DNA of 64,000 nt from an uncultured Prolixibacteraceae bacterium (GCA_963747515.1 CAVVFN010000009.1:234505-298504), one strand, 5' to 3'. Numbered from the stretch's first letter, positions 6,731-35,640 are shown. A program made the numbers and translations. Notes: a model not told the origin generated them from the letters alone.

Positions 6731-7093
6731 ATGCTTTCAACAAGGGAAATAGGAGTGTTAGCCGAAAAACATGCAAAAGAATACCTTCTGGAACTGGGCT
6801 ACCAAATCCTTGACACCAACTGGCAATTCGGCCATTTGGAACTCGACATTGTGGCGCGTGAGGCCGATCAATTGGTAATCGTGGAGGTGAAATCGCGTAA
6901 TGGGATTCGTTACGAACATCCTTCGGAGGCCATAACCGATATAAAAATAAGACGAATTGTAGATGCTGCCGAAGCGTACATTTTTCAGAAGGACCTGCAT
7001 TGCGACACCCGTTTCGATGTAATAACAGTCATCTTTTTTGGTGATATTCCTGAACTTGAACATTTCAAGGATGCATTTTATCCCACCCCCTGA
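6731..7093 (+). CDS. yraN: YraN family protein (UPF0102, PD-(D/E)XK fold)
   Basis: G..AE..A..YL...GY.IL..NW....LELDIVA, VEVKSR and RFDVI motifs. Confidence 0.9.
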   Translation: MLSTREIGVLAEKHAKEYLLELGYQILDTNWQFGHLELDIVAREADQLVIVEVKSRNGIRYEHPSEAITDIKIRRIVDAAEAYIFQKDLHCDTRFDVITVIFFGDIPELEHFKDAFYPTP

Positions 7094-7119
7094 CGGCATT
7101 GGATCTAAATTCAAATTCG

Positions 7120-7127
7120 TATTTTTG
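7120..7127 (+). promoter_or_regulatory. Bacteroidota -7 promoter element (TATTTTTG)
   Basis: Exact TAnnTTTG just upstream of GTG 7135, supporting that start over the ORF-track start at 7099. Confidence 0.5.
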
Positions 7128-7134
7128 CATTGTT

Positions 7135-7482
7135 GTGAATATAGAAGAGATCAGGAAATATTGCCTGGAAAAGAAAGGAGTTACGGAAAGTTTTCCTTTT
7201 GATGAAACTACGCTGGTATTTAAAGTCTCAGCAAAAATCTTTTGTCTTGCCAATCTGGAGGGCGATCTTACAGTGAATCTTAAAAACGATCCTGAAAAGA
7301 ACCTTGAGTTGCGTGAAAGATATCCTGCAGTAAAACCCGGATACCACATGAACAAACAACATTGGAATACCGTTGAAATCAAAGGGAAGATTCCCGATAT
7401 CCTGATAAAACAATTCATCGATGATTCATACAATTTGGTAGTAAAAAATTTATCCCGAAAACAAAAACAAGAGTTGAAATAA
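7135..7482 (+). CDS. MmcQ/YjbR family DNA-binding protein
   Basis: ESFPFDETTLVFKV, NLKNDPE, PGYHMNKQHWNTV motifs; start moved to GTG 7135. Confidence 0.85.
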   Translation: MNIEEIRKYCLEKKGVTESFPFDETTLVFKVSAKIFCLANLEGDLTVNLKNDPEKNLELRERYPAVKPGYHMNKQHWNTVEIKGKIPDILIKQFIDDSYNLVVKNLSRKQKQELK

Positions 7483-8571
7483 ATGAAAACGCACCCTTTA
7501 TTTATCATTTTCTTAGTAGGTTTTTTTATCAATACTTCTGCTTATCCAGATATCAAAGGCGGAGAATTCTCACTTGAAACTGTTATTAAGCATTTTCCGG
7601 TTATCGATCAAGGCAGTACAGGAACCTGCTGGAGCTTTGCCACCACCAGTTTTCTGGAGTCGGAAATTATCCGCAAGGGTTATCCGGAAACCGATTTATC
7701 TGAAATGTTTTTTGTTTATCATGCCTATGAAAACAGAGCTCTGAATTATTTATTGTTTCATGGCAACAACAATATTGGTCAGGGAGGCCAGGCACACGAT
7801 GTAATGAATGTATTGGCCCAATATGGAATGATGACCCAGGAGGCATTCCCTGGAGTAGAGGGCAACGGCCGGCTCAATCACCGTAACCTGGAAAGAGAGG
7901 TGCGTGATGAGGCACAAAGGCTAAATGATAAAAAGGATGGTTTTACTTCAAAAAACCTTGAAACTTTCGATGCTATCCTGGATAACCATTTAGGTCAACT
8001 GCCTAAAAAGATGGCTCGCGGTTCCAAAAAAATAACTCCGATTGAATTTCGCGACAGTTTTGAAATTGACCCAGATGACTACATTGAGCTTACCTCTTAC
8101 AGCCATAGGCCCTTTTATAAGCCTTTTGTTCTGGAAGTACCCGATAACTGGGCGCATGGCCTCTATTACAATTTGCCCATCGACGAGTTGGTGGAGGTAA
8201 TGTACTACGCCCTCGAAAATGGATATACCATTGCCTGGGATGGCGATACCAGTGAAAAAACCTTTAGCTATGTCAATTGCAAAGCGGATCTGCCACGTAA
8301 ACAAAAAGGGAAAGTGGACCAAAAACTGCGTCAGGAAACTTTTTATAACCGAACTACCACCGACGATCATTTGATGCATATTGTTGGAATTTCGAGCGAC
8401 AGGGAGGACAGAAAAATGTTTTATACCAAAAATTCATGGGGACCTGCCAGCAATGATTGTGGAGGATACCTGCACATGACTGAAGATTACGTAAGACTGA
8501 AAACATTGGCTGTTATGGTGAATAAGGAATCCATTCCCGCTCATATCCGGCAAAAACTGGAGTTGAAATAG
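7483..8571 (+). CDS. aminopeptidase C / bleomycin-hydrolase-like cysteine peptidase (C1B)
   Basis: DQGSTGTCWSF (Gln/Cys), DDHLMHIVG (His), KNSWG (Asn); signal peptide. Confidence 0.88.
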   Translation: MKTHPLFIIFLVGFFINTSAYPDIKGGEFSLETVIKHFPVIDQGSTGTCWSFATTSFLESEIIRKGYPETDLSEMFFVYHAYENRALNYLLFHGNNNIGQGGQAHDVMNVLAQYGMMTQEAFPGVEGNGRLNHRNLEREVRDEAQRLNDKKDGFTSKNLETFDAILDNHLGQLPKKMARGSKKITPIEFRDSFEIDPDDYIELTSYSHRPFYKPFVLEVPDNWAHGLYYNLPIDELVEVMYYALENGYTIAWDGDTSEKTFSYVNCKADLPRKQKGKVDQKLRQETFYNRTTTDDHLMHIVGISSDREDRKMFYTKNSWGPASNDCGGYLHMTEDYVRLKTLAVMVNKESIPAHIRQKLELK

Positions 8572-8776
8572 CAGCCGATAGCAGCAGAAGGAAAATACAT
8601 AATGTGAGCAAAATTTCCTTGTTGCTGTACTTCTTATGGATTAACAGCCAATTTGCCCGCACTGCTCTTTAGTGTTCAGGGTGTTTTTTGTAACAAACAA
8701 ATCATCCGTTTTGATAACCAACGGGAAGCAGAGACAGTGACAAATAATCAATAATAAAAACAAATGAGAATACCTG

Positions 8777-9004
8777 ATGAATGAATTTGTACTTAACAAC
8801 GATTACATTGAACTGGTGAGGCTGATCAAATTCCTTGGCATTGCTGAAACCGGGGGACATGCAAAAACATTGATTGACCTGGGAGAGGTGCGGTTAAACG
8901 GACAAACGGAACTTCGTAAACGTGCCAAACTCAGAGATGGGGATGTATTAGAAATTTCCGGCAGAAAAATACGGATTCGTTCTGCCGGAAATGCAAACTC
9001 CTGA
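8777..9004 (+). CDS. S4-domain RNA-binding protein (YaaA/YbcJ-like)
   Basis: YIEL..LIK..GIAETGG.AK..I..GEV.LNG..E.RKRAKL..GD pattern. Confidence 0.88.
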   Translation: MNEFVLNNDYIELVRLIKFLGIAETGGHAKTLIDLGEVRLNGQTELRKRAKLRDGDVLEISGRKIRIRSAGNANS

Positions 9005-9019
9005 ACTGACATTCAAGCT

Positions 9020-10654
9020 TTATTTCTTTTCCTTTAAAAGGTTCTCAACCAAAAGGTTTTGTTTCGACACTTCAACGGCTTTCTGCAGGGTATTGTCAAT
9101 CTGGCTGATAATAGGAAAATAACCTTCTTCCCCTATTATATTTCGTGCTATGTATGCCTTCAGCTGTGTCTTTATTAATTCACCCGATTGTTTCAATCCT
9201 TTCGCATCTTTTGGAATATCATTTTTTGCAGCATAATTTATAAACTCATTCATTATATTTTGTTGATCGAGATAAGTCTCAAATTCTCCTGCTGTTTTAA
9301 ATTTTGATAGTTTCTCTCTGTGGCTGTCGGCATAATTAAATGCAAAAGTATAAATCAGTCCTTTCCTGAATAAGCGATTGAAGTAATCCGAATTGCCTGT
9401 TGTATCCATGGGAACAAAGATATCGGGCATAATGCCACCTCCTCCGTAGACAATCCTGCCCGCTTTTGTCTGATACTTCAGTGAATCATTAAACTGAATG
9501 CTGTCGGCAGATAATTGTTCATTGTGGCTGAACCGTGTCTGTAAATCATGATAATATTCATCGTTGCCATTTTCATAAGGCTTTTGAATGCTTCTGCCAC
9601 TTGGTGTATAAAACCGGGCCACTGTCAGCCGCAATGCAGATCCATCCATCAGTGGAATCTGTTCCTGAACCAGCCCCTTACCAAACGACCGCCGGCCAAT
9701 AATCAGTCCACGGTCATTATCCTGAAGTGCTCCTGCAAATATTTCACTTGCCGATGCTGAGAATTCATCTATCAGCACAAAAACCTCCATGTCCTTCCAG
9801 TGGTTTTTCCCTGAAGCCCTGTATGTTTTACGAGGCTGATTTATTCCTTCAGTATATAAAATGGACTCCCCTTTCTCCAGAAATTCGTCCAGTATTTGCA
9901 GCACACTCGATAAAGAACCTCCCGGATTCTGACGAAGATCGACGATTACTTTTTTGGCTCCCTTTTCATTTATTTTCTGCATCCCCTGCATAAATTCATT
10001 GTATGTCTGTTCAGAAAACCGGTTTACTTTTATGAATCCTGTTTCATCGTCAATCATATAGGCAATATCGACACTGATAAGTGGAATGTTATCTCTTGTG
10101 ATTTCGAATTCCAGCTCTTCATCATATCCTTTTCTAATGATGCCAACTTCAACCCTGGTGTTTCGTTCTCCTCTCAAAAGCTTCAATACGGTGTTGTTTT
10201 TAACGTCCACTCCGGCAATTAAAGAATCATTTACGGTAACAATCCGATCACCAGGTAAAATGCCGACCTGGTTCGAAGGCCCGTTCGGGATAACTTCAAT
10301 AACCCTTACCGTATCGTCCTGAATCGAAAATTGAACACCTATTCCGGAGAAATTTCCACTCATCTCTTCATGAACTTCCTGCATATTTTTTGCCGGAATG
10401 TAAGCAGTATGAGGATCAAGATTTTTCAGGATTTCAGGAATGGTTTGTTCCACAATTTCGTCAGCATTGATGCTGTCTACATATCCGTTTTCTATTAGCT
10501 GAAGTACAGTATTCAGTTTATTTGGCCGTGCATAACCCATTAATGGTGAATGTACAACCTGGCTGTTGTGCCTGAGCAGGTTTCCCAAAAGAATACCTGC
10601 AGCAACCGATACAGCTACCAGTAAAGGCAAAATTACAGTTGTTCTTTTATTCAT
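9020..10654 (-). CDS. S41 family C-terminal processing peptidase (CtpA/Prc-like)
   Basis: LDPH, GIGV (PDZ), DLRQNPGG, SASASEIFAGALQD, GRRSFGKG motifs. Confidence 0.92.
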   Translation of the reverse strand: MNKRTTVILPLLVAVSVAAGILLGNLLRHNSQVVHSPLMGYARPNKLNTVLQLIENGYVDSINADEIVEQTIPEILKNLDPHTAYIPAKNMQEVHEEMSGNFSGIGVQFSIQDDTVRVIEVIPNGPSNQVGILPGDRIVTVNDSLIAGVDVKNNTVLKLLRGERNTRVEVGIIRKGYDEELEFEITRDNIPLISVDIAYMIDDETGFIKVNRFSEQTYNEFMQGMQKINEKGAKKVIVDLRQNPGGSLSSVLQILDEFLEKGESILYTEGINQPRKTYRASGKNHWKDMEVFVLIDEFSASASEIFAGALQDNDRGLIIGRRSFGKGLVQEQIPLMDGSALRLTVARFYTPSGRSIQKPYENGNDEYYHDLQTRFSHNEQLSADSIQFNDSLKYQTKAGRIVYGGGGIMPDIFVPMDTTGNSDYFNRLFRKGLIYTFAFNYADSHREKLSKFKTAGEFETYLDQQNIMNEFINYAAKNDIPKDAKGLKQSGELIKTQLKAYIARNIIGEEGYFPIISQIDNTLQKAVEVSKQNLLVENLLKEKK

Positions 10655-27110: not shown

Positions 27111-27598
27111 GTGGATAGAATTAATCATTCCTTGCATATTCGCAGGGGTTCTGGTACAATTGCTGAATTTTTTATTTTACAGGATTCTTTTTATCTTTCA
27201 ATATACAAACAGGTAATTCATTTGCTCCGATTAGGTAATTTTCCTTTTATCAATGCTGCAAAAATATAATTCTATACAACTCTGCAATCCTGTTTGGCGG
27301 CTTATGACATCGGTACCATGAAGGTTGTGTTTCCATCTGCCGGATTAGGATAAAAACAGACCAATTTTTCAAATGTGTCAAAGCAGAATTAACTATTTTT
27401 TTTTCAAATGCGATCTACTTTTATACTACCATAGCTTACATTTTTTCATTCCCACTCAGCTTTCCAAAATTTATCGCTGCGCTTCTGGTCTGGACCCATT
27501 AAGACCATAAGCGCAGCGGAAAAAAAAGCCAGGGCTGACCGGAACAGGAAAAACCAGACCGCATGTAGCCGAAAGGTATCCTAAATTGTAATCCGGTT

Positions 27599-27751
27599 GA
27601 TCGAAAGACAGTTGACAAGATTTCAGAAAACATGTTCATGTTGTATTTTGCAGATTATTCTTCCTTTACACCAGAAGCACCTTTTGATGCCTCACTATTT
27701 GATGAGTTTCGAAAGATGTCAGGTATGGATTTTTTCAGCAAGAATGAATGA
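27599..27751 (+). mobile_element. decayed IS5-family transposase fragment (InsH N-terminal / DUF772-like)
   Basis: Hand translation of a frame absent from the ORF track: DRKTVDKISENMFMLYFADYSSFTPEAPFDASLFDEFRKMSGM, matching the (D)DRE.V.QI.EN.YMQYFLG...F....PFD.SLFV.FRKR.G pattern; no DDE domain or terminal inverted repeats seen. Confidence 0.7.
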
Positions 27752-27928
27752 TATCTTTTTTAAAGAACTTGCACCTCATAAAGAGATATACTACAAAATG
27801 TATTGTCCACCAGGAATACCTGACAAAGTTAGTAAAAAATCGTAGAAGGAGTTTTTCAGCAAGCCCTAGGTACAGATTTTTTTGATTAGGCAATTCTTTG
27901 TTTTTTTTTTATAAAATCCTTTCAATTT

Positions 27929-30900
27929 TTATTTATAATTCAAGTTTGTTGGAAGAAACTTTTCAATAAACTCAACAGTTTTACCTTTTCGCCGGGCATA
28001 GTCTTCCACCTGATCGCGGCCTATTTTTTCGAGGCTAAAATATTTTGATTCAGGACTTGCAAAATATTCACCCGAAACCGAAGCATTTGGGTACATGGCA
28101 TAATGTTCGGTAAGTTTTATTCCCACTTCCTCAGCATTTAGCAGATTAAAAAGATTTTCCTTTTCCGAATGTTCAGGGCAGGCAGGATAACCCAGGGCAG
28201 GACGTATTCCCTGGTACTTTACCCGTTGAAGTTGCTCCTGGGAAAGGTTTTCATTTGGAGCATATCCCCAATATTCCTTTCTCACCTTTTCATGCAGCAG
28301 TTCGGCAAAAGCTTCACTTAACCGATCGGCCAACGATTCCAGCATTATGGCTTTATAATCGTTATTATCTTTGCGGTACATTTCTTTCCATGGTTCGATT
28401 CCAATGCCTGCTGTAGTTGCAAAACCGCCACAATAATCGGTTTTCCCTGATTCCAATGGTGCTACAAAATCAGAAAGACTTAAATTTACTGATTCCTTTT
28501 TTTTCTTTTCCTGTTGCCGCAGGTGGTAAAACCGGCCGGCTTCTTTATTTCTACGTTCATCATCCCAAAGGATAATATCATCGCCCCCGGAATTGGCAGG
28601 CCATAATCCAAACACAGCATTGGCCTGCAGCATTTTCTTTTCAATTACCTCATCGAGGAACGTATTGGCTTCGGCAAGCAATTTACGCGCAGCATCTCCC
28701 TGGTTTTCATCCTCCAGGATTTGCGGGAAATGCCCTTTCATTCCCCACGTCAGGAAAAAGAAAGTCCAGTCGATATATTCACGCAATTCGCTTAACGGAT
28801 AATCTATAAGAGTTTTTACCCCCAGTATATTGGGCTTGTATATTGGACTGTTTTCCCAGTCAATCGCAGGTTTATTTGTACGGGCATCTTTCAGTTTCAG
28901 GTATTCCTTGGGTTTACGTTGCCCCTGGAACTGACGCACCTGTTCATAATCATCTTTAACCGACTGAATGTACTTTTCATTTTTCGACAACAGGTTGGAT
29001 ACCACATTCACTGCCAGTGAAGCATCCTTTACATGCACAACCGGATGAGAATATTGGGGTTCAATTTTTACAGCAGTGTGTATTTTTGAAGTAGTTGCTC
29101 CTCCGATTAAAAGAGGTATGGTTAATTTTCTTTGTTCCATTTCTTTGGCAATGTCTGCCATCATTTCAAGAGAAGGAGTTATTAATCCGCTTAGCCCCAC
29201 GATATCGACCTGTTCAGTGACAGCTGCATCGAGAATCTTTTCGGTGGGGACCATCACTCCCAAATCGATGATGTCGTAGTTATTGCATGCCAATACAACA
29301 CCTACTATATTTTTTCCAATATCATGCACATCCCCTTTTACGGTGGCCAACAATACTTTTTTTTGTTTACTTGTGTCTTTCATTCTGGCTTTATCGGCTT
29401 CAATGTAAGGCAGCAGGTAAGCCACTGCTTTTTTCATTACCCGGGCCGATTTAATCACCTGGGGCAGAAACATTTTACCCGATCCAAACAGTTCCCCCAC
29501 TACATTCATACCATCCATAAGTGGTCCTTCAATAATATTCAGGGCAGGTTGATATTTTTTAAGGGCTTCGGCCATATCCTGTTCCACAAAATCAGGAATG
29601 CCTTTTACCAGTGCATGTGCCAAACGTTTTTCCAAAGGTAAGTCCCGCCACTCATCTTTTTTTACTTCTTTTTTATCTCCCTGCTTTACCTGTTCTGCAA
29701 ATTCGAGTAATCTTTCAGTTGCGTCGGTCCTTTTGTTCAGTATCAGGTTTTCTGTTCTTTTAAGCAGGTCATTTGGTATTTCATCATAAATCTGCAACAT
29801 TCCCGGATTAACAATACCCATATCTAAACCGGCACGGATGGCATGAAAAAGAAACACCGAATGCATGGCTTCCCGCACTACATCATTTCCTCTGAAAGAA
29901 AAAGATACATTGCTGATTCCACCGCTGGTTTTAGCATCGGGCAGGTTTTCTTTAATCCATTTTACCGAATTTATGAAATCCACAGCATAATTGCTGTGTT
30001 CCTCCATTCCCGTACCTATTGTCAGCACATTTGGGTCGAAGATGATGTCCTGAGGCGGGATTCCTACCTTTTCGGTGAGGATTCTATAAGCCCTTTCGCA
30101 AATTTCTTTACGACGTTCAAGGGAATCTGCCTGACCTGATTCATCGAATGCCATTACTACAACAGCTGCACCGAAACGTTTAATGGTTCTTGCCTGAGCT
30201 GTAAAGTTTTTCTCACCTTCCTTTAAGCTGATGGAATTAACAATGGCTTTTCCCTGAAGACATTTAAGGCCAGCCTCAATGACTTTCCACTTTGAGGAGT
30301 CAACCATAACCGGAAGTTTTGCAATATCGGGTTCCGCCATCATCAGGTTTAGGAAGATTACCATTTCTTTTTCTGCGTCGAGCATGGCATCATCCATATT
30401 CACATCAATAACCTGTGCCCCATTTTCAACCTGGTCACGGGCAATGGCCAGGGCTTCTTCATATTTTTTATCACGGATAAGACGGGCAAATTTTCGTGAG
30501 CCGGAAACATTACAGCGTTCTCCTATATTGACAAAATTGGTTTCCCGGGTAAGGGTAACGGGCTCAAGACCGCTTAACCGCGTATTGTTATCTTTGGGAT
30601 TAACATGATGTGGTTTGGCATGAACCGCCATTTTTGCAAATTCACGAATATGGTCGGGGGTAGTACCACAACATCCTCCAATAATGTTTACAAAGCTGTT
30701 ATCAAGATATTCCTTAAGGTATCCTCCCATTATTTCAGGTGTTTCATCATAGCCTCCAAACTGGTTGGGCAGCCCCGCATTGGGATGAGCACTAATATGG
30801 AATGAAGCTTTTTGTGAAAGTTCTTTAACGTAAGGCCGCAGTTCGGTGGCACCCAGAGAACAATTCAGCCCGATACTTAGCAGATCGATGTGTGAAACAG

Positions 30901-31594
30901 AATTCAGAAAAGCCTCAAGGGTCTGACCCGAAAGTGTACGTCCGCTGGCATCGGTAATGGTTCCTGAAATCATTAGCGGCAATCGGATGTTTTTTCTCTC
31001 CAATGTTTCTTCCACAGCAAAAATAGCTGCCTTTGCATTCAGTGTGTCAAAAATGGTTTCAATGAGCAGCAAATTCACTCCGCCATCGATAAGGCCCTCA
31101 ATCTGCTCCCGGTAGGCTTCTTTAACTTCATCGAAGGAAACTGCTCTGTACCCGGGGTCATTTACATCGGGCGACAGCGATAATGTTTTGTTGGTAGGAC
31201 CCAATGTTCCGGCTACAAACCTTGGCTTATCAGGATTTTGCTCCGTAAAATAAAGTGCCTGTCTGCAAGCAATTTCTGCAGATGCCATGTTCATTTCATA
31301 AACCAGGTGCTGGGTGTTGTAGTCGGCCTGTGATATACGATTGGCATTAAATGTATTGGTAAGAATAATATCGGCACCTGCTTCCAGGTATTTCGAGTGT
31401 ATTTCTTCAATTATTTCAGGATGTGTAAGAGAAAGGATGTCGTTGTTTCCTTTTTGGTCGTGGGTTGTATTTTTCAGGAGTTCCCCACGGTAATCTTCTT
31501 CAGATAATCTGTAGTCCTGTAAAAGTGAGCCCATAGCGCCATCCAGAACCAAAACACGCGTTTGCAATTCTTTTTGTATGTCTTTTTTAATCAT
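27929..31594 (-). CDS. metH: B12-dependent methionine synthase
   Basis: LDGAMG, GLNC, GGCCGT (Hcy-binding zinc), IGER.N..GS (pterin-binding), GDVHDIGKN (cobalamin-binding), GIRPA.GYP.CP (reactivation domain). Confidence 0.97.
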
Positions 31595-31683
31595 AACTTT
31601 TTTTCTGTTTTCTTCTCATCAAATGCCTTAAGTTTTCTGTTGTTAAAATTTCTACTGAAGCTCTGCAAGGCATGTTTATTCTT

Positions 31684-32430
31684 TTACTTTATAATTTTTA
31701 TTTCATATTCTCCACGAACACCAATCTTTTCATCTTTAATTATTACTAAAGAAAGAATTTCTGTAAACATTTCTGAAAGTTTAAGTGCTTTTTCCAGATC
31801 TTCCTGATGTTTAACTTCATTTCCGATTGCGGTGGCAAATGCATCAGCAAGCAATATATTTTTACATACAACAGCCACAGCATCGGCATTGCCAAAACTA
31901 AGCGAGGGTCCTACTGTCCCTGCCGAGGTGCAGATTCCAATCTTTCCGCAACCTGGTGGAATTACAATGCCAATTTTTTCAGATAAAGATGAACTTCCTG
32001 CAAAAACTGACAGAAAGAGTTTTTGTTCAACTAAGGCAAAGATATCTCCACCGTTCTCTATAACCAATTCTATAACTGAAAAGTTTTGCAAAAGAGCCTC
32101 TCCCGCCTCACGTGAAAACAATCCGGCTACCGAGGCCATAGGTCCTACACCTGCTCTGGCTGCAGCATGTGCCATTTCTTTGGCTTCTGCCGGAGCTGCA
32201 TCAGAGGGCATGAAAGGATCGAGACTTTCTGCAAAATGAGGTTCTTTCCCGATCCATTTATCCAGCTTTTGCCTCAGTTCTCTTATTTTAGTAAATACAA
32301 CATCTTTCATTTCTTCCCGATATGAGCCTGGATCTATACCAATCCAAAGATCGGTTTCAAGATGTTTAATCTTAAATGCTTTGAAACGTCTGTAGTTGAA
32401 ATAATCCCTGTATGTTCTTTCGTGAAACAT
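31684..32430 (-). CDS. UPF0280 / ApbE-like protein (MA1715-like sulfide assimilation factor)
   Basis: ETDL.I, A...A.VGPMA.VAG, ENGGDI, GICTS.GTVGPS.SFG.ADA..V, ADA.ATA.GN motifs. Confidence 0.85.
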   Translation of the reverse strand: MFHERTYRDYFNYRRFKAFKIKHLETDLWIGIDPGSYREEMKDVVFTKIRELRQKLDKWIGKEPHFAESLDPFMPSDAAPAEAKEMAHAAARAGVGPMASVAGLFSREAGEALLQNFSVIELVIENGGDIFALVEQKLFLSVFAGSSSLSEKIGIVIPPGCGKIGICTSAGTVGPSLSFGNADAVAVVCKNILLADAFATAIGNEVKHQEDLEKALKLSEMFTEILSLVIIKDEKIGVRGEYEIKIIK

Positions 32431-32503
32431 GTTTTTAGATACGCCTTTTGCTCTTTTGGCTTATTACCGGGAGGCAATATCCCCTAAGCTAATAATTAAT
32501 GAA

Positions 32504-32914
32504 TTACCTGAAGTCAATATTAAACAGGTGCAAAGGACACGCGCCGATACACAATTCACATACAACACACTTGCTTTTATTGAATTCCAGTTTCCAGTTA
32601 TCTGGATTCATAGTGAGGGCGCCGGCAAAGCAAACTGCAGTACAATTTCCGCAATCGATACACTTATCTTCCTTAAAATGAATTCGTTTGTCAAGAGGTT
32701 CGCAAACAACATCATGGTCGGTAAGGTATTGCACCCCTTTTTCAATATTCTCCTTTTTTCCCTGAAGCTCTAAAAGAAGACTTCCCCTTTTGCCCGGAAA
32801 TACTTCCGCCTTCAGAATGTTAATACGGATGTCATAATCCCTCACCAGGTGATAACTGAGGGGCTTGTCTCCACTTTCCGGGGGAAAATTAAGTACATAT
32901 CTTTTTTTAATCAT
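32504..32914 (-). CDS. NIL domain plus 2x[4Fe-4S] ferredoxin (MA1822-like)
   Basis: N-terminal NIL domain (INILKA...G.L.LEL.G); CIDCGNCTAVC and CVVCELCIGACP cluster motifs. Confidence 0.88.
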   Translation of the reverse strand: MIKKRYVLNFPPESGDKPLSYHLVRDYDIRINILKAEVFPGKRGSLLLELQGKKENIEKGVQYLTDHDVVCEPLDKRIHFKEDKCIDCGNCTAVCFAGALTMNPDNWKLEFNKSKCVVCELCIGACPLHLFNIDFR

Positions 32915-34070
32915 TGTCGGCCTCCGTTTCCTTTAAGCTTTTCAGAGATGTATTTTGAGGGAACAATTGTACAGGTTTTGAAATTTCAAACTGTCCGTTT
33001 TGTAACCACAATTTAAGTTGGTCGGCAATTTTTCGCGCCTTTGCAAGACTTGAAACCGGAGCTGTACGGATTTTTTTTCCATTTATTTTTATTGACCCCG
33101 ACTGCAGCTGTTCGTAAGTTACCTGTCCAAGTTTTGGCATTCCCAAAGTACCATAATCAAGCACTGAAGTGTCAATTTGACTATTTGAAACGGAAACCCG
33201 CCGGGCCATATTTTCATCCAAAACAGGAATGGGTATTCCAATACCCATAAACATGCTCACTCCATATTTTTCATAATAAACAGCCTGCAGGAATTCAGGC
33301 GACATTTGTTTTAAATCTCCAATTACTGCTATTGTAGCCGCATTTGTAACCGGAATTCCCAGCTCATTTTTAGGGCGGGTAGTGTGAAATTGTGTGCCGT
33401 TCCAAACAACAAAACCCTGCGCACCCCCAAGAAAAATACGTGTTCCAATGCCAATAGTCCGCATTTCAGGATCATTGAGCAGGGGGCTTAATTCTCCTGA
33501 TGTAGAGTAGGTTGCATTACGCATATTGGGAAGTAAGGTTCCCATGTAGGTGTGAATCATCTTCCTGGTAGTATTGACAGCTACATTGTAATTCTGATAG
33601 GCATTCCTTGGGTTGAAAAGGGTAAATTCATTGATGGTGTTAATATTTATTCTGGTACGTATGTGCTTGCGGGGATAGCAGTCGGTACCTTTTCCCCAGG
33701 CCTCCAATACGACATCTTTCCCTTCCAGCAAATCTTGTATCACATGCGCTCCGCCATAGGCCGGATTATCCGGATCACAGGCAGTAGCTCCAATGTATGC
33801 ATCCACCGCAGCCAGTCCCTCGTAACAGGGTACCCCATTTAGCCTTATCTTTTCCATACGTATGGGGGGAGTAGAATGACCAAAATTAATGATCGCTCCG
33901 GAAGAACACATCGCACCAAAGGTGGCAGTAGTTACAATATCTACTTGTTCTGCAATCTCTGCAGGACTGGCTGATTTTGCCAGCCGGGTAACTTCTTCTG
34001 CAGTAAGAATAACAGCTTTACCCTGCTTCAGCTTCTGGTTAATCTCTTCGTAAGTTTTTATTTTAGGCAT
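32907..34070 (-). CDS. homocysteine biosynthesis protein / aspartate-semialdehyde sulfurtransferase (DUF39, MA1821-like) without CBS domains
   Basis: KT.EEIN.KL..G.AV.LTAEE, VD.VTTATFGAMCSSGA, GELSPLLNDP..RTIG.GTRIFLGGA.G, YG.S...GIGIPIP motifs. Confidence 0.88.
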   Translation of the reverse strand: MPKIKTYEEINQKLKQGKAVILTAEEVTRLAKSASPAEIAEQVDIVTTATFGAMCSSGAIINFGHSTPPIRMEKIRLNGVPCYEGLAAVDAYIGATACDPDNPAYGGAHVIQDLLEGKDVVLEAWGKGTDCYPRKHIRTRININTINEFTLFNPRNAYQNYNVAVNTTRKMIHTYMGTLLPNMRNATYSTSGELSPLLNDPEMRTIGIGTRIFLGGAQGFVVWNGTQFHTTRPKNELGIPVTNAATIAVIGDLKQMSPEFLQAVYYEKYGVSMFMGIGIPIPVLDENMARRVSVSNSQIDTSVLDYGTLGMPKLGQVTYEQLQSGSIKINGKKIRTAPVSSLAKARKIADQLKLWLQNGQFEISKPVQLFPQNTSLKSLKETEADND

Positions 34071-34102
34071 TTTAAAATGAAAAGTTGCTTTATTTTATGG
34101 AG

Positions 34103-34110
34103 CAAATTTA
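34103..34110 (-). promoter_or_regulatory. Bacteroidota -7 promoter element for the homocysteine/metH operon (TAAATTTG)
   Basis: Exact TAnnTTTG 33 nt upstream of ATG 34070. Confidence 0.55.
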
Positions 34111-34269
34111 GCTGATTTTACCTAATGAAAAGTATTTTAGTACGATTCAGTTAAAGAGTCGGTATATTAAAAATATGAAAACCTGAAGATTTTTCTTTTA
34201 AAATGATAAACCTGAATGGTGCTATTCGTTGGTTTCTGTTAATTTTACCTTTTTAAATTAATTTTTTAC

Positions 34270-35640
34270 ATGATTGAAATAGATTACCGTTTACATTTTA
34301 AAGATTTACAGAAAAAACTATCGTTATTTTGGGAGCTTTCAGCAGAAAAAATTATTCATATTGATAAGAACTATGATTCTTCCAATGGTTCTCCTGTATT
34401 TACCGTTGACGGGAAATATACTACCCGCGGCTGGACAGAATGGACACAGGGTTTTCAGTTTGGTTCGTCTATTTTACAGTTTGATATAACCGGTGATGTT
34501 TCTTTTTTGGAATCAGGAAAAAAAGCTACTCTTGAAAAAATGGCACCTCATGTTAGTCATACTGGGGTTCACGACCATGGGTTTAATAACCTGAGTACCT
34601 ATGGAAATCTTCTGCGGCTGATGAATGAAGGGAAGATTCCCCGGAATGAGTGGGAGAAAAATTTTTTTGAACTGGCTCTGAAAATTTCTGGAGCTGTGCA
34701 GGCCAGCCGATGGACAAAAACTAAAAACGGCGGGTACATCTATTCCTTTAATGGTCCGCATTCATTGTTTGTTGATACCATCCGTTCATGCCGTATTCTA
34801 ATAGCATCGCATATGCTGGGACATGACATGCAGGGGGAAAACGATGTGAAAATATCTCTCCTGGAACGGGCTGTTCAACATATTTATGCAACTGCCAAAT
34901 ATTCTGTTTTCTATGGAGAGGGAAGGGATGTGTATGATGTTAGAGGCAGAACAGCTCATGAATGCATTTTTAATATCAACGACGGCAATTTTCGATGCCC
35001 CAATTCACAACAAGGATACTCAGGATTCTCAACATGGACCCGTGGTCTGGCCTGGGCAATGTTAGGTTTTGCCGAAGAACTGGAAGCTTTCCGCAATATT
35101 ACCGATAATGATTTGCAATCATTTGGAGGTAAGGCAGATATCGAAAAGATGATGTTGAAAGCTGCCCGTGCTACCTGCGATTTTTACATTGAAAATACAC
35201 CGGTTGACGGAATTCCGTATTGGGATACGGGTGCTCCAAATTTGCATAAATTGGGAGATTACCTGAATAAACCTGCTGATCCATTTAATGCCTGGGAACC
35301 GGTTGATAGTTCGGCAGCAGCCATTGGTGCCCAGGGACTGCTCAGGCTGGGGAAATATCTGAATGAAAAAAGCGACAAGGAATCAGGAGAAAAATACTGG
35401 CAGGCCGGACTGACAGTAATGAATTCATTGCTCGATTATCCTTACCTGAGTACCAATCCTCAGCATCAGGGGCTAATTTTGCATAGCATATATCATCATC
35501 CCAATGGTTGGGATCATATTCCGGCGGGTCAGAAAATTCCCTGCGGGGAATCATCCATGTGGGGTGATTATCATGCAAGGGAAGCAGCTCTTTATTTGCA
35601 CCGGATGCTTTCTGATGAAAGATATTACACATTTTTTTAA
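34270..35640 (+). CDS. GH88-like unsaturated glycuronyl hydrolase
   Basis: HDHGF, S.W.RG.AW...GF, YWD, DSSAAAI and WGDY motifs of the (alpha/alpha)6 GH88 fold; no signal peptide. Confidence 0.75.
   Translation: MIEIDYRLHFKDLQKKLSLFWELSAEKIIHIDKNYDSSNGSPVFTVDGKYTTRGWTEWTQGFQFGSSILQFDITGDVSFLESGKKATLEKMAPHVSHTGVHDHGFNNLSTYGNLLRLMNEGKIPRNEWEKNFFELALKISGAVQASRWTKTKNGGYIYSFNGPHSLFVDTIRSCRILIASHMLGHDMQGENDVKISLLERAVQHIYATAKYSVFYGEGRDVYDVRGRTAHECIFNINDGNFRCPNSQQGYSGFSTWTRGLAWAMLGFAEELEAFRNITDNDLQSFGGKADIEKMMLKAARATCDFYIENTPVDGIPYWDTGAPNLHKLGDYLNKPADPFNAWEPVDSSAAAIGAQGLLRLGKYLNEKSDKESGEKYWQAGLTVMNSLLDYPYLSTNPQHQGLILHSIYHHPNGWDHIPAGQKIPCGESSMWGDYHAREAALYLHRMLSDERYYTFF

Follow-up and report, generated by a model that had tools for sequence, protein, structure and literature searches.

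We found that a Mariniphaga-like marine bacterium carries an already known set of genes for the anaerobic synthesis of homocysteine from sulfide directly beside its only methionine synthase gene. The locus lies in a 64,000-nt stretch of DNA from an uncultured Prolixibacteraceae bacterium (GCA_963747515.1, CAVVFN010000009.1:234505-298504; hereafter the window), and we consider it likely that this cluster encodes the final two reactions of methionine synthesis along the known sulfide route, in parallel to a MetA/MetY route, and that it has been inherited within the family. Both the pathway and the gene set are known, and the locus represents neither new chemistry nor a new kind of system. Our assignment is based on gene content, synteny, distribution, conserved residues and the control by SAM riboswitches found in relatives; what each subunit does, and by what chemistry, is carried over by analogy from published work on homologues. 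Genetic work has demonstrated the route in Methanosarcina and in Desulfovibrio, where homocysteine rescues Dde_3007 mutants (PMC4045070). A literature search gave no paper characterising it in Bacteroidota, in line with the first-pass annotation of this DNA. That annotation had described DUF39, NIL-ferredoxin and COG2122 homocysteine genes linked to metH at 27929-34070; all four open reading frames are intact and lie there on the minus strand (Table 1), and profile matches bear out their identities. The intergenic gaps measure -8, 73 and 89 nt and contain no TAnnTTTG motif on the coding strand, which makes co-transcription of the four genes plausible. The GC content of the cluster (0.42) equals that of its flanks.

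Table 1 Features of the methionine cluster, in window coordinates
Feature	Coordinates	Strand	Evidence
[quoted passage not shown]
NIL + 2x[4Fe-4S] ferredoxin, 136 aa	32504..32914	-	PF09383 and Fer4 families
UPF0280/COG2122 ApbE-like protein, 248 aa	31684..32430	-	NF003323 and PDB 2o34 matches
MetH, cobalamin-dependent methionine synthase, 1221 aa, five domains	27929..31594	-	NF007024, TIGR02082, Pfam
Candidate Bacteroidota -7 promoter box TAAATTTG	34103..34110	-	Position and conservation

The DUF39 protein, encoded by a single-copy gene, matched PF01837 over the full profile (1-349 of 349, residues 19-363; 498 bits, E 1.4e-149). It contains the TATFGAMCSSG motif, which includes C55, and a second cysteine, C131, which lies within GTDCYP and is itself invariant in 10 Bacteroidales sequences. 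Across 43 DUF39 sequences from approximately 10 phyla, C55 was invariant and C131 was conserved in at least 90%; the two residues are the counterparts of the essential Cys54 and of Cys131 of the Methanosarcina acetivorans L-ASST (PMC12068725). Profile match, residues and synteny together suggest orthology to the characterised L-ASSTs MA1821, Dde_3007 and DvMF_1464. No Pfam match to a C-terminal CBS pair was found in the protein, which ends at residue 387. The CBS pair is a feature of archaeal L-ASSTs only, so that its absence is no argument against membership of the bacterial subgroup, and the bacterial-type Dde_3007 lacks it as well (PMC4045070). L-ASST has no solved structure, and a sequence search of the PDB with the DUF39 protein gave no match; its AF2 model (pLDDT 95) likewise found no PDB neighbour at E<=0.001 in a fold search, which added nothing on the mechanism.

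The second gene encodes a small ferredoxin with a NIL domain (PF09383, E 6.9e-16) and Fer4 families, in which eight cysteines form two CxxCxxCxxxC motifs. An 8-nt overlap joins the beginning of this gene to the end of DUF39, and the same position and overlap recur in Prolixibacteraceae loci; the protein is presumed to be the electron-donating subunit. The third protein had no Pfam match but scored 225.6 bits (E 5.9e-67) against NF003323 (UPF0280/PRK04334), below the equivalog cut-off of 271, and matched PDB 2o34 (E 4.9e-27). The COG2122 gene directly follows the NIL-ferredoxin gene in most of 98 related loci, and its product is presumed to help in the delivery of sulfide or persulfide.

The fourth gene encodes a full-length MetH (NF007024, 1995 bits, cut-off 1497; TIGR02082, 1723 bits), with all modules found: homocysteine-binding (PF02574), pterin-binding (PF00809), B12 cap (PF02607), B12-binding (PF02310) and reactivation (PF02965). 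Searches of the genome found neither MetE (PF01717) nor a second full-length MetH, leaving the cluster MetH as the only methionine synthase found. The first-pass annotation had further proposed that the organism bypasses homoserine acylation, and that the genome be checked for absence of metA/metX, metB/metC and metY. This part fails for the organism as a whole because the genome keeps an intact and tightly packed aspartate kinase-metY-metA operon, in which MetY (TIGR01326, 665 bits, cut-off 495) and MetA (NF047918, 486.5 bits, cut-off 460.5) both exceed curated cut-offs, together with two further PF01053 enzymes. The L-ASST and MetA/MetY routes are redundant here.

It is conceivable that the cluster is nevertheless the main or only working homocysteine route, with MetA and MetY serving, for example, in O-acetylhomoserine/sulfide salvage or cysteine synthesis. 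The coupling of the sole methionine synthase gene to the L-ASST genes would fit this, as would the description of the TIGR01326 model, by which its members can be bifunctional OAH/OAS sulfhydrylases, and the existence of gut Rikenellaceae and Odoribacteraceae genomes that have the cluster and lack MetA, MetX and MetY. Since those gut bacteria have none of the three genes, L-ASST may be their sole way to homocysteine. We nevertheless regard this explanation as unlikely for the window host, given the state of its ask-metY-metA operon and the retention of MetA and MetY in four of four sampled Prolixibacteraceae with DUF39. A similar redundancy, between L-ASST and a co-encoded O-acetylhomoserine sulfhydrylase route, was reportedly described for M. 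acetivorans by Rauch et al. in 2014.

By analogy with the characterised systems, the DUF39 protein and the translationally coupled NIL-2x[4Fe-4S] ferredoxin would form an L-aspartate-semialdehyde sulfurtransferase. Assisted by the COG2122 protein, this enzyme would take up sulfur from sulfide, probably in the form of a persulfide on C55. The sulfur would then be passed to the aldehyde carbon of aspartate semialdehyde, and the intermediate reduced by two electrons through the ferredoxin clusters, yielding homocysteine without homoserine or acyl-homoserine; MetH would methylate this product from 5-methyl-THF. The earlier statement that all four steps are co-transcribed is wrong: three of the proteins would serve a single step and MetH the second, and asd and metF are present in the genome outside the cluster.

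A candidate promoter box lies 33 nt upstream of the DUF39 ATG, with a predicted leader of approximately 25 nt. The single TAnnTTTG promoter claimed earlier agrees with what we observed. Since TAnnTTTG is not enriched across the window (64 observed, 73 expected), the evidence for this box is its position and its conservation, a GCTAAaTTTGC box also occurring 31-33 nt before the ATG in the Mariniphaga anaerophila locus (L049) and in locus L052. Scans for sigma-70 promoters and intrinsic terminators returned no more sites than in shuffled sequence and were uninformative here. So short a leader could hold neither a riboswitch nor a leader peptide, and we rejected a leader peptide or attenuator before DUF39 on the basis of the conserved -7 box. 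Rfam searches found no riboswitch in the whole window at the gathering threshold or in 27500-34400 at E<=1; the lone match in the latter search, to bxd_4, is attributable to chance. No SAM riboswitch was detectable in the host's own genome when 150 of 451 candidates were scored and a regular expression that recognises five of five Bacteroidota-type copies was applied. At least 35 related loci have a SAM-I riboswitch immediately 5' of DUF39 and on its strand; the window's sublineage lacks it. It is this riboswitch in the relatives that ties the DUF39 cluster to methionine; for the window's own cluster, a link to methionine control is suggested by homology with these relatives and by adjacency to metH.

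These observations bear on the substrate of the DUF39 protein. MMP16/ComF (COG1900d), the coenzyme M synthase, belongs to the same COG1900 fold family and carries out analogous aldehyde-to-thiol chemistry on sulfoacetaldehyde (PMC12068725), so that the window protein could in principle thiolate some other aldehyde and make some other thiol, its proximity to metH being incidental. COG1900 members do differ in substrate, the function of MMP16 may be covered in part by L-ASST (PMC12068725), and the substrate of the window's clade is assigned from sequence. However, in a profile search the protein reached only 140.1 bits against TIGR03287 (MMP16), far below the cut-off of 363.95; it has just four cysteines, no CxxCxxC motif and no inserted ferredoxin domain, whereas in MMP16 a ferredoxin domain interrupts the COG1900 domain and the conserved cysteines are differently placed. 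The COG1900a-specific cysteine pair is present instead. We therefore ruled out the coenzyme M synthase paralogue, and the protein does not group with the non-homocysteine paralogue that the first-pass annotation had named as grounds for refutation. The wider proposal of another aldehyde is very improbable, as it would also have to accommodate the SAM-I riboswitches of the relatives, a MetH linkage that recurs in several phyla, and six high-quality Bacteroidales genomes in which the cluster is present and no other homocysteine route is recognisable.

DUF39 was found in 176 of 301 Prolixibacteraceae genomes (58%), representing 23 of 36 genera. Gut Rikenellaceae and Odoribacteraceae are among the approximately 5% of sampled Bacteroidales species that have it. 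The pathway, for which methanogens and Desulfovibrio have so far supplied the only proof, would now extend to these bacteria, among them most Prolixibacteraceae. The DUF39-NIL-ferredoxin-COG2122 order was conserved in most of the 98 loci, and the same order followed by MetH was observed in nearly all Prolixibacteraceae loci, in Odoribacteraceae, in Spirochaetota and in another Bacteroidota metagenome-assembled genome, which removes the special event implied by the earlier wording, a pathway "fused into an operon". The window's DUF39 shares 87% identity with the M. anaerophila protein and 81-84% with its Draconibacterium counterparts, and the gene order is the same. In a tree made up solely of uncharacterised homologues, it belongs to a Prolixibacteraceae clade (SH-aLRT 99) that forms part of an all-Bacteroidales clade (99); the latter falls within a Bacteroidota/Spirochaetota/Fidelibacterota group, apart from a Bacillota/Methanomassiliicoccales group. 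The "methanogen-type" label and the idea of a foreign donor are not supported for this protein, and a recent horizontal acquisition from an archaeal, deltaproteobacterial or Firmicutes donor was rejected for this lineage on the tree, the prevalence in the family and the unremarkable GC content. A small separate Bacteroidales lineage (L031, L032, L122) was placed among Bacillota-type sequences.

The distribution has another side: DUF39 was present in 0 of 400 genomes in a phylum-wide Bacteroidota sample, it is patchy in Bacteroidales, where it forms at least three separate lineages, and COG2122 and MetH have been lost from the locus in some relatives (L047, L052, L060). These facts would suit an island that was gained recently or is decaying and that no longer has a function. 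We find that scarcely credible for four intact genes that include the genome's only methionine synthase, match their flanks in GC and keep their order in related genera, with a DUF39 that is highly identical there and occurs in more than half of the family's genomes. The cluster is characteristic of the Prolixibacteraceae and has been inherited within the family; it was not acquired recently.

Among known systems, that of Desulfovibrio (Dde_3007; DvMF_1464, DvMF_0262 and DvMF_0044; PMC4045070, PMC5764234) is built from the same three protein families, with a DUF39 protein that, like the window's, is of the bacterial type, without CBS and with a separate NIL-ferredoxin, and it has the same proposed role, conversion of aspartate semialdehyde and sulfide to homocysteine with no homoserine intermediate. 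In D. vulgaris, however, the locus tags indicate that the three genes lie apart, and the organism lacks the standard route, whereas in the window the genes are contiguous with a full-length metH, coexist with MetA/MetY and belong to a member of the Bacteroidota (Prolixibacteraceae). The M. acetivorans L-ASST (MA1821/MA1822, helper MA1715; PMC12068725) is also a COG1900a protein with an adjacent small ferredoxin subunit, and its cysteine numbering nearly equals that of the window protein. The archaeal C-terminal CBS pair is a SAM-sensing regulatory domain (PMC12068725), so that control by SAM is exerted through the protein in archaeal L-ASSTs and through the SAM-I riboswitch in the window's relatives. 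The archaeal sequences among the top matches, from Methanomassiliicoccales, are placed in the opposite half of the DUF39 tree. Dehalococcoides DET0921:DET0919, an apparent DUF39 pathway in PMC5764234, offers contiguous genes in a bacterium, as in the window; no link to metH is reported for it there.

As to what a second route might be for, we purely infer that the Fe-S/sulfide route would operate under anoxic, sulfidic conditions, with the PLP route covering the others. Taken jointly, the findings can be read, tentatively and at somewhat less than even confidence, as an ecologically meaningful switch in Bacteroidales and no mere redundant extra. Facultative Prolixibacteraceae with two routes would then use the ferredoxin/sulfide one when conditions are anoxic and sulfidic; gut Rikenellaceae and Odoribacteraceae, having dropped MetA, MetX and MetY, would need free sulfide, reduced ferredoxin and B12; and the Mariniphaga sublineage would have replaced SAM-riboswitch control by a putative regulator acting at the conserved promoter beside the start codon. 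M. anaerophila and Draconibacterium provide cultured, oxygen-tolerant hosts in which this poorly understood enzyme could be studied. For metabolic reconstruction, Bacteroidales that lack MetA, MetX and MetY but carry the cluster should not be called methionine auxotrophs.

All four genes that the first-pass annotation had read as a methanogen-type homocysteine pathway were confirmed on the minus strand of the window, with the domains it described, as intact ORFs separated by intergenic gaps of -8, 73 and 89 nt. [quoted passage not shown] The eight ferredoxin cysteines of NIL/Fd lie in two 4Fe-4S motifs, CIDCGNCTAVC and CVVCELCIGACP. The COG2122 protein had no Pfam match; in the PDB it matched a structure deposited under the name 'hypothetical protein' (2o34, E 4.9e-27). 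The neighbours are unrelated: CAAX protease, Ham1, PorZ and RecO genes flank the cluster at one end, a sugar-acid operon at the other. The GC content of the cluster is unremarkable. An 823-nt gene-free stretch follows metH; it houses an inverted repeat with arms of about 10 bp, and no canonical terminator was found in it.

Features of the DUF39-metH cluster and its flanks (window coordinates)
Feature	Length	Position	Strand	Basis
DUF39	387 aa	32907-34070	minus	PF01837 'HcyBio, homocysteine biosynthesis enzyme, sulfur-incorporation', whole profile, E 1.4e-149
NIL/Fd	136 aa	32504-32914	minus	NIL domain and two 4Fe-4S motifs
COG2122 (UPF0280/PRK04334)	248 aa	31684-32430	minus	NCBIfam models, E 5.9e-67, 225.6 bits, under the 271-bit equivalog cut-off
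MetH, cobalamin-dependent methionine synthase	1221 aa	27929-31594	minus	complete, five domains; NF007024, 1995 bits (cut-off 1497)
Candidate promoter box		34103-34110	coding strand	TAAATTTG
Inverted repeat	about 10 bp per arm	27470-27530	minus	CGCTGCGCTT ... AAGCGCAGCG

COG1900 proteins fall into at least two functional branches, and by the features below the window DUF39 does not group with the non-homocysteine paralogue, the outcome that would have refuted the first-pass reading. That paralogue, COG1900d or methanogenesis marker 16 (MMP16), is now shown to be the coenzyme M synthase; its COG1900 domain is interrupted by a ferredoxin domain and its cysteines are at other positions. Nearly all COG1900a proteins share two cysteines, Cys54 being essential in vivo and Cys131 non-essential (PMC12068725). 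The window DUF39 has no inserted ferredoxin domain, scores 140 bits with the MMP16 model TIGR03287 against a cut-off of 364 bits, and carries C55 in TATFGAMCSSG and C131 in GTDCYP; C55 is present in every one of 43 homologues drawn from about ten phyla, and C131 in at least 90% of them. Unlike the archaeal enzymes it lacks a C-terminal CBS pair, and this is equally true of Dde_3007, a Desulfovibrio protein characterised by genetics (PMC4045070). Profile, residues, partners and context together suggest that the window DUF39 is orthologous to the characterised members. An AlphaFold2 model built from the 43-sequence alignment was confident (pLDDT 95.1, pTM 0.91), and neither a structural neighbour at E<=0.001 nor a sequence relative was found in the PDB; this is a trait of the whole DUF39 family rather than of the locus, and no experimental structure yet represents the fold.

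The three-protein DUF39 pathway is established knowledge in bacteria. One paper (PMC5764234) notes a contiguous DUF39 cluster in Dehalococcoides (DET0921:DET0919) and cites methanogen work that gives aspartate semialdehyde and sulfide as the substrates and a persulfide on a conserved cysteine in vivo. From published work on homologues, sulfide would be bound in persulfide form, probably at C55 and with COG2122 assisting, and the persulfide sulfur would attack the aldehyde of aspartate semialdehyde; the two [4Fe-4S] clusters would then reduce a thioaldehyde-like intermediate to homocysteine, for methylation by MetH. Our literature search found no paper tying the three-protein pathway to Bacteroidota. 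The window cluster places a known pathway in a new host clade and is ordinary within its family; modestly new are the mapped distribution in Bacteroidales, the lineages in which L-ASST is apparently the sole homocysteine route, and a widespread SAM-I control of the cluster that appears to have been lost in the sublineage of the window.

The genome itself (5.47 Mb, 12 contigs, 100% complete) contradicts the proposal that the organism bypasses homoserine acylation. Its contig 8 carries a tight operon of aspartate kinase, MetY (TIGR01326, 665 bits; cut-off 495) and acetyl-type MetA (NF047918, 486.5 bits; cut-off 460.5), so that, with the L-ASST cluster, the organism has two routes to homocysteine. 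Two PF01053 enzymes besides MetY are encoded; MetX and MetE were not found in the genome, nor did tblastn reveal a second full-length MetH, and the only methionine synthase therefore adjoins the L-ASST genes. Nor does the cluster hold all four steps, as had been claimed: its four genes cover two reactions only, and Asd and MetF are encoded elsewhere, on contigs 2 and 8. What stands of the original interpretation is the presence of DUF39 pathway genes beside metH. Methanosarcina acetivorans is reportedly also redundant for two homocysteine routes. Facultatively anaerobic growth is described for the type species of Mariniphaga and Draconibacterium. The Fe-S- and sulfide-dependent route may serve under anoxic, sulfidic conditions, with MetA and MetY used otherwise.

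About 4-8 kb before the window start lies another four-gene set (L130:2317-6789; G000:C9:226316-230788), encoding a corrinoid protein with B12-binding_2 and B12-binding domains (236 aa), a URO-D/MtaA-like methyltransferase fused to a thioredoxin-like domain (539 aa), a stand-alone homocysteine S-methyltransferase-domain protein (294 aa) and a CobW GTPase, which could be a system for corrinoid-dependent homocysteine methylation from an alternative methyl donor.

The bypass probably does hold in some relatives. Among 19 Bacteroidales genomes carrying DUF39, MetA and MetY are both present in ten, including all four Prolixibacteraceae, whereas six genomes, each at least 95% complete, lack MetA and MetX and have no MetY above the curated cut-off of its model. 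Two of the six are Odoribacteraceae-like (G527 with locus L041, G645 with L040) and three are Rikenellaceae (G533 with L038, identical to a Rikenellaceae MAG sequence; G652 with L046; G754 with L042); the sixth is G432 with L039. Judged from their gene content, L-ASST is apparently the sole homocysteine route in these genomes.

No PF01837 gene was found in 400 other Bacteroidota genomes sampled evenly across the phylum. In a sample of the order, 20 of 400 other genomes had one, representing 17 of 237 genera with that of the window included; within Prolixibacteraceae, 176 of 301 genomes had one, from 23 of 36 genera. When one genome was scanned for each species, at least 598 species had a relative. 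The best matches are Mariniphaga anaerophila DSM 26910 (87%), Draconibacterium spp. (81-84%), the cultured D. mangrovi GM2-18 (L058) among them, and other Prolixibacteraceae, followed by gut and rumen Bacteroidales (60-67%), Spirochaetota and Fidelibacterota (about 60%), Bacillota (55-58%) and Methanomassiliicoccales (53-55%).

In an unrooted DUF39 tree (IQ-TREE quick method; 98 proteins, all uncharacterised, from the top 80 matches and the order sample), the window falls within a 16-row Prolixibacteraceae clade (SH-aLRT 99), sister to a gut Bacteroidales clade. The resulting all-Bacteroidales group (31 rows, 99) lies inside a 72-row group (100) with a second Bacteroidales lineage, Spirochaetota, Fidelibacterota and others, apart from a Bacillota/Methanomassiliicoccales group that contains a third, small Bacteroidales lineage (L031, L032, L122). 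This topology argues for long residence of the window's DUF39 lineage in Bacteroidales and speaks against a recent donor among archaea, deltaproteobacteria or clostridia.

Among 18 unnamed Bacteroidales loci and 80 named loci, almost all have DUF39, NIL/Fd and COG2122 in this order. The next gene is a full-length MetH in eleven Prolixibacteraceae loci (L049-L051, L053-L059, L068) and L037, in Odoribacteraceae (L035, L040, L041, L063, L067), in four Spirochaetota loci (L076, L085, L094, L095) and in another Bacteroidota MAG (L099), and in several Bacillota a shorter MetH (about 800 aa) is encoded close by. Because MetH lies directly downstream in several lineages, the supposed fusion with metH is an old, recurrent arrangement and not a special event. 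Three Prolixibacteraceae loci (L047, L052, L060) have DUF39 and NIL/Fd without COG2122 or MetH downstream, and eight loci from Fidelibacterota and others (L075, L087, L092, L098, L105, L109, L114, L115) place COG2122 after DUF39 without an intervening NIL-ferredoxin. In the Prolixibacteraceae MAG locus L068, DUF39 (7001-8162) and COG2122 (8667-9408) each align in two overlapping parts that differ in reading frame; these are frameshifts, which reflect errors of assembly or else pseudogenes.

In seven of ten related loci tested, Rfam recognised a SAM-I riboswitch (RF00162) immediately upstream of DUF39 and in the same orientation (61-75 bits; gathering score 44). A covariance model built from these matches detected SAM-I ahead of the cluster in at least 35 of the 98 loci, among them ten from Prolixibacteraceae, members of both other Bacteroidales lineages and several Bacillota. 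These riboswitches are independent comparative evidence that the cluster belongs to the methionine/SAM regulon. No SAM-I was found upstream of DUF39 in the window (34071-34269), M. anaerophila (L049), L052 or L057. The window's genome had no RF00162 match (150 of 451 candidates scored), no match to a SAM-I pattern that recognises five of five Bacteroidota-type copies, and no SAM-I before ask-metY-metA. The candidate box TAAATTTG lies 33 nt before the first ATG, leaving no room for a riboswitch or leader peptide. The bare motif is not enriched within the window (64 matches against 73 expected); a GCTAAaTTTGC box 31-33 nt before the ATG is shared by L049 and L052, the two closest loci with upstream sequence, which makes it a credible promoter. 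SAM-I control appears to have been lost in the Mariniphaga sublineage, where this conserved box stands instead. In three Bacillota, two SAM-I copies stand in series upstream of DUF39 (L103:6572-6902, L108:6321-6826, L116:2899-3267).
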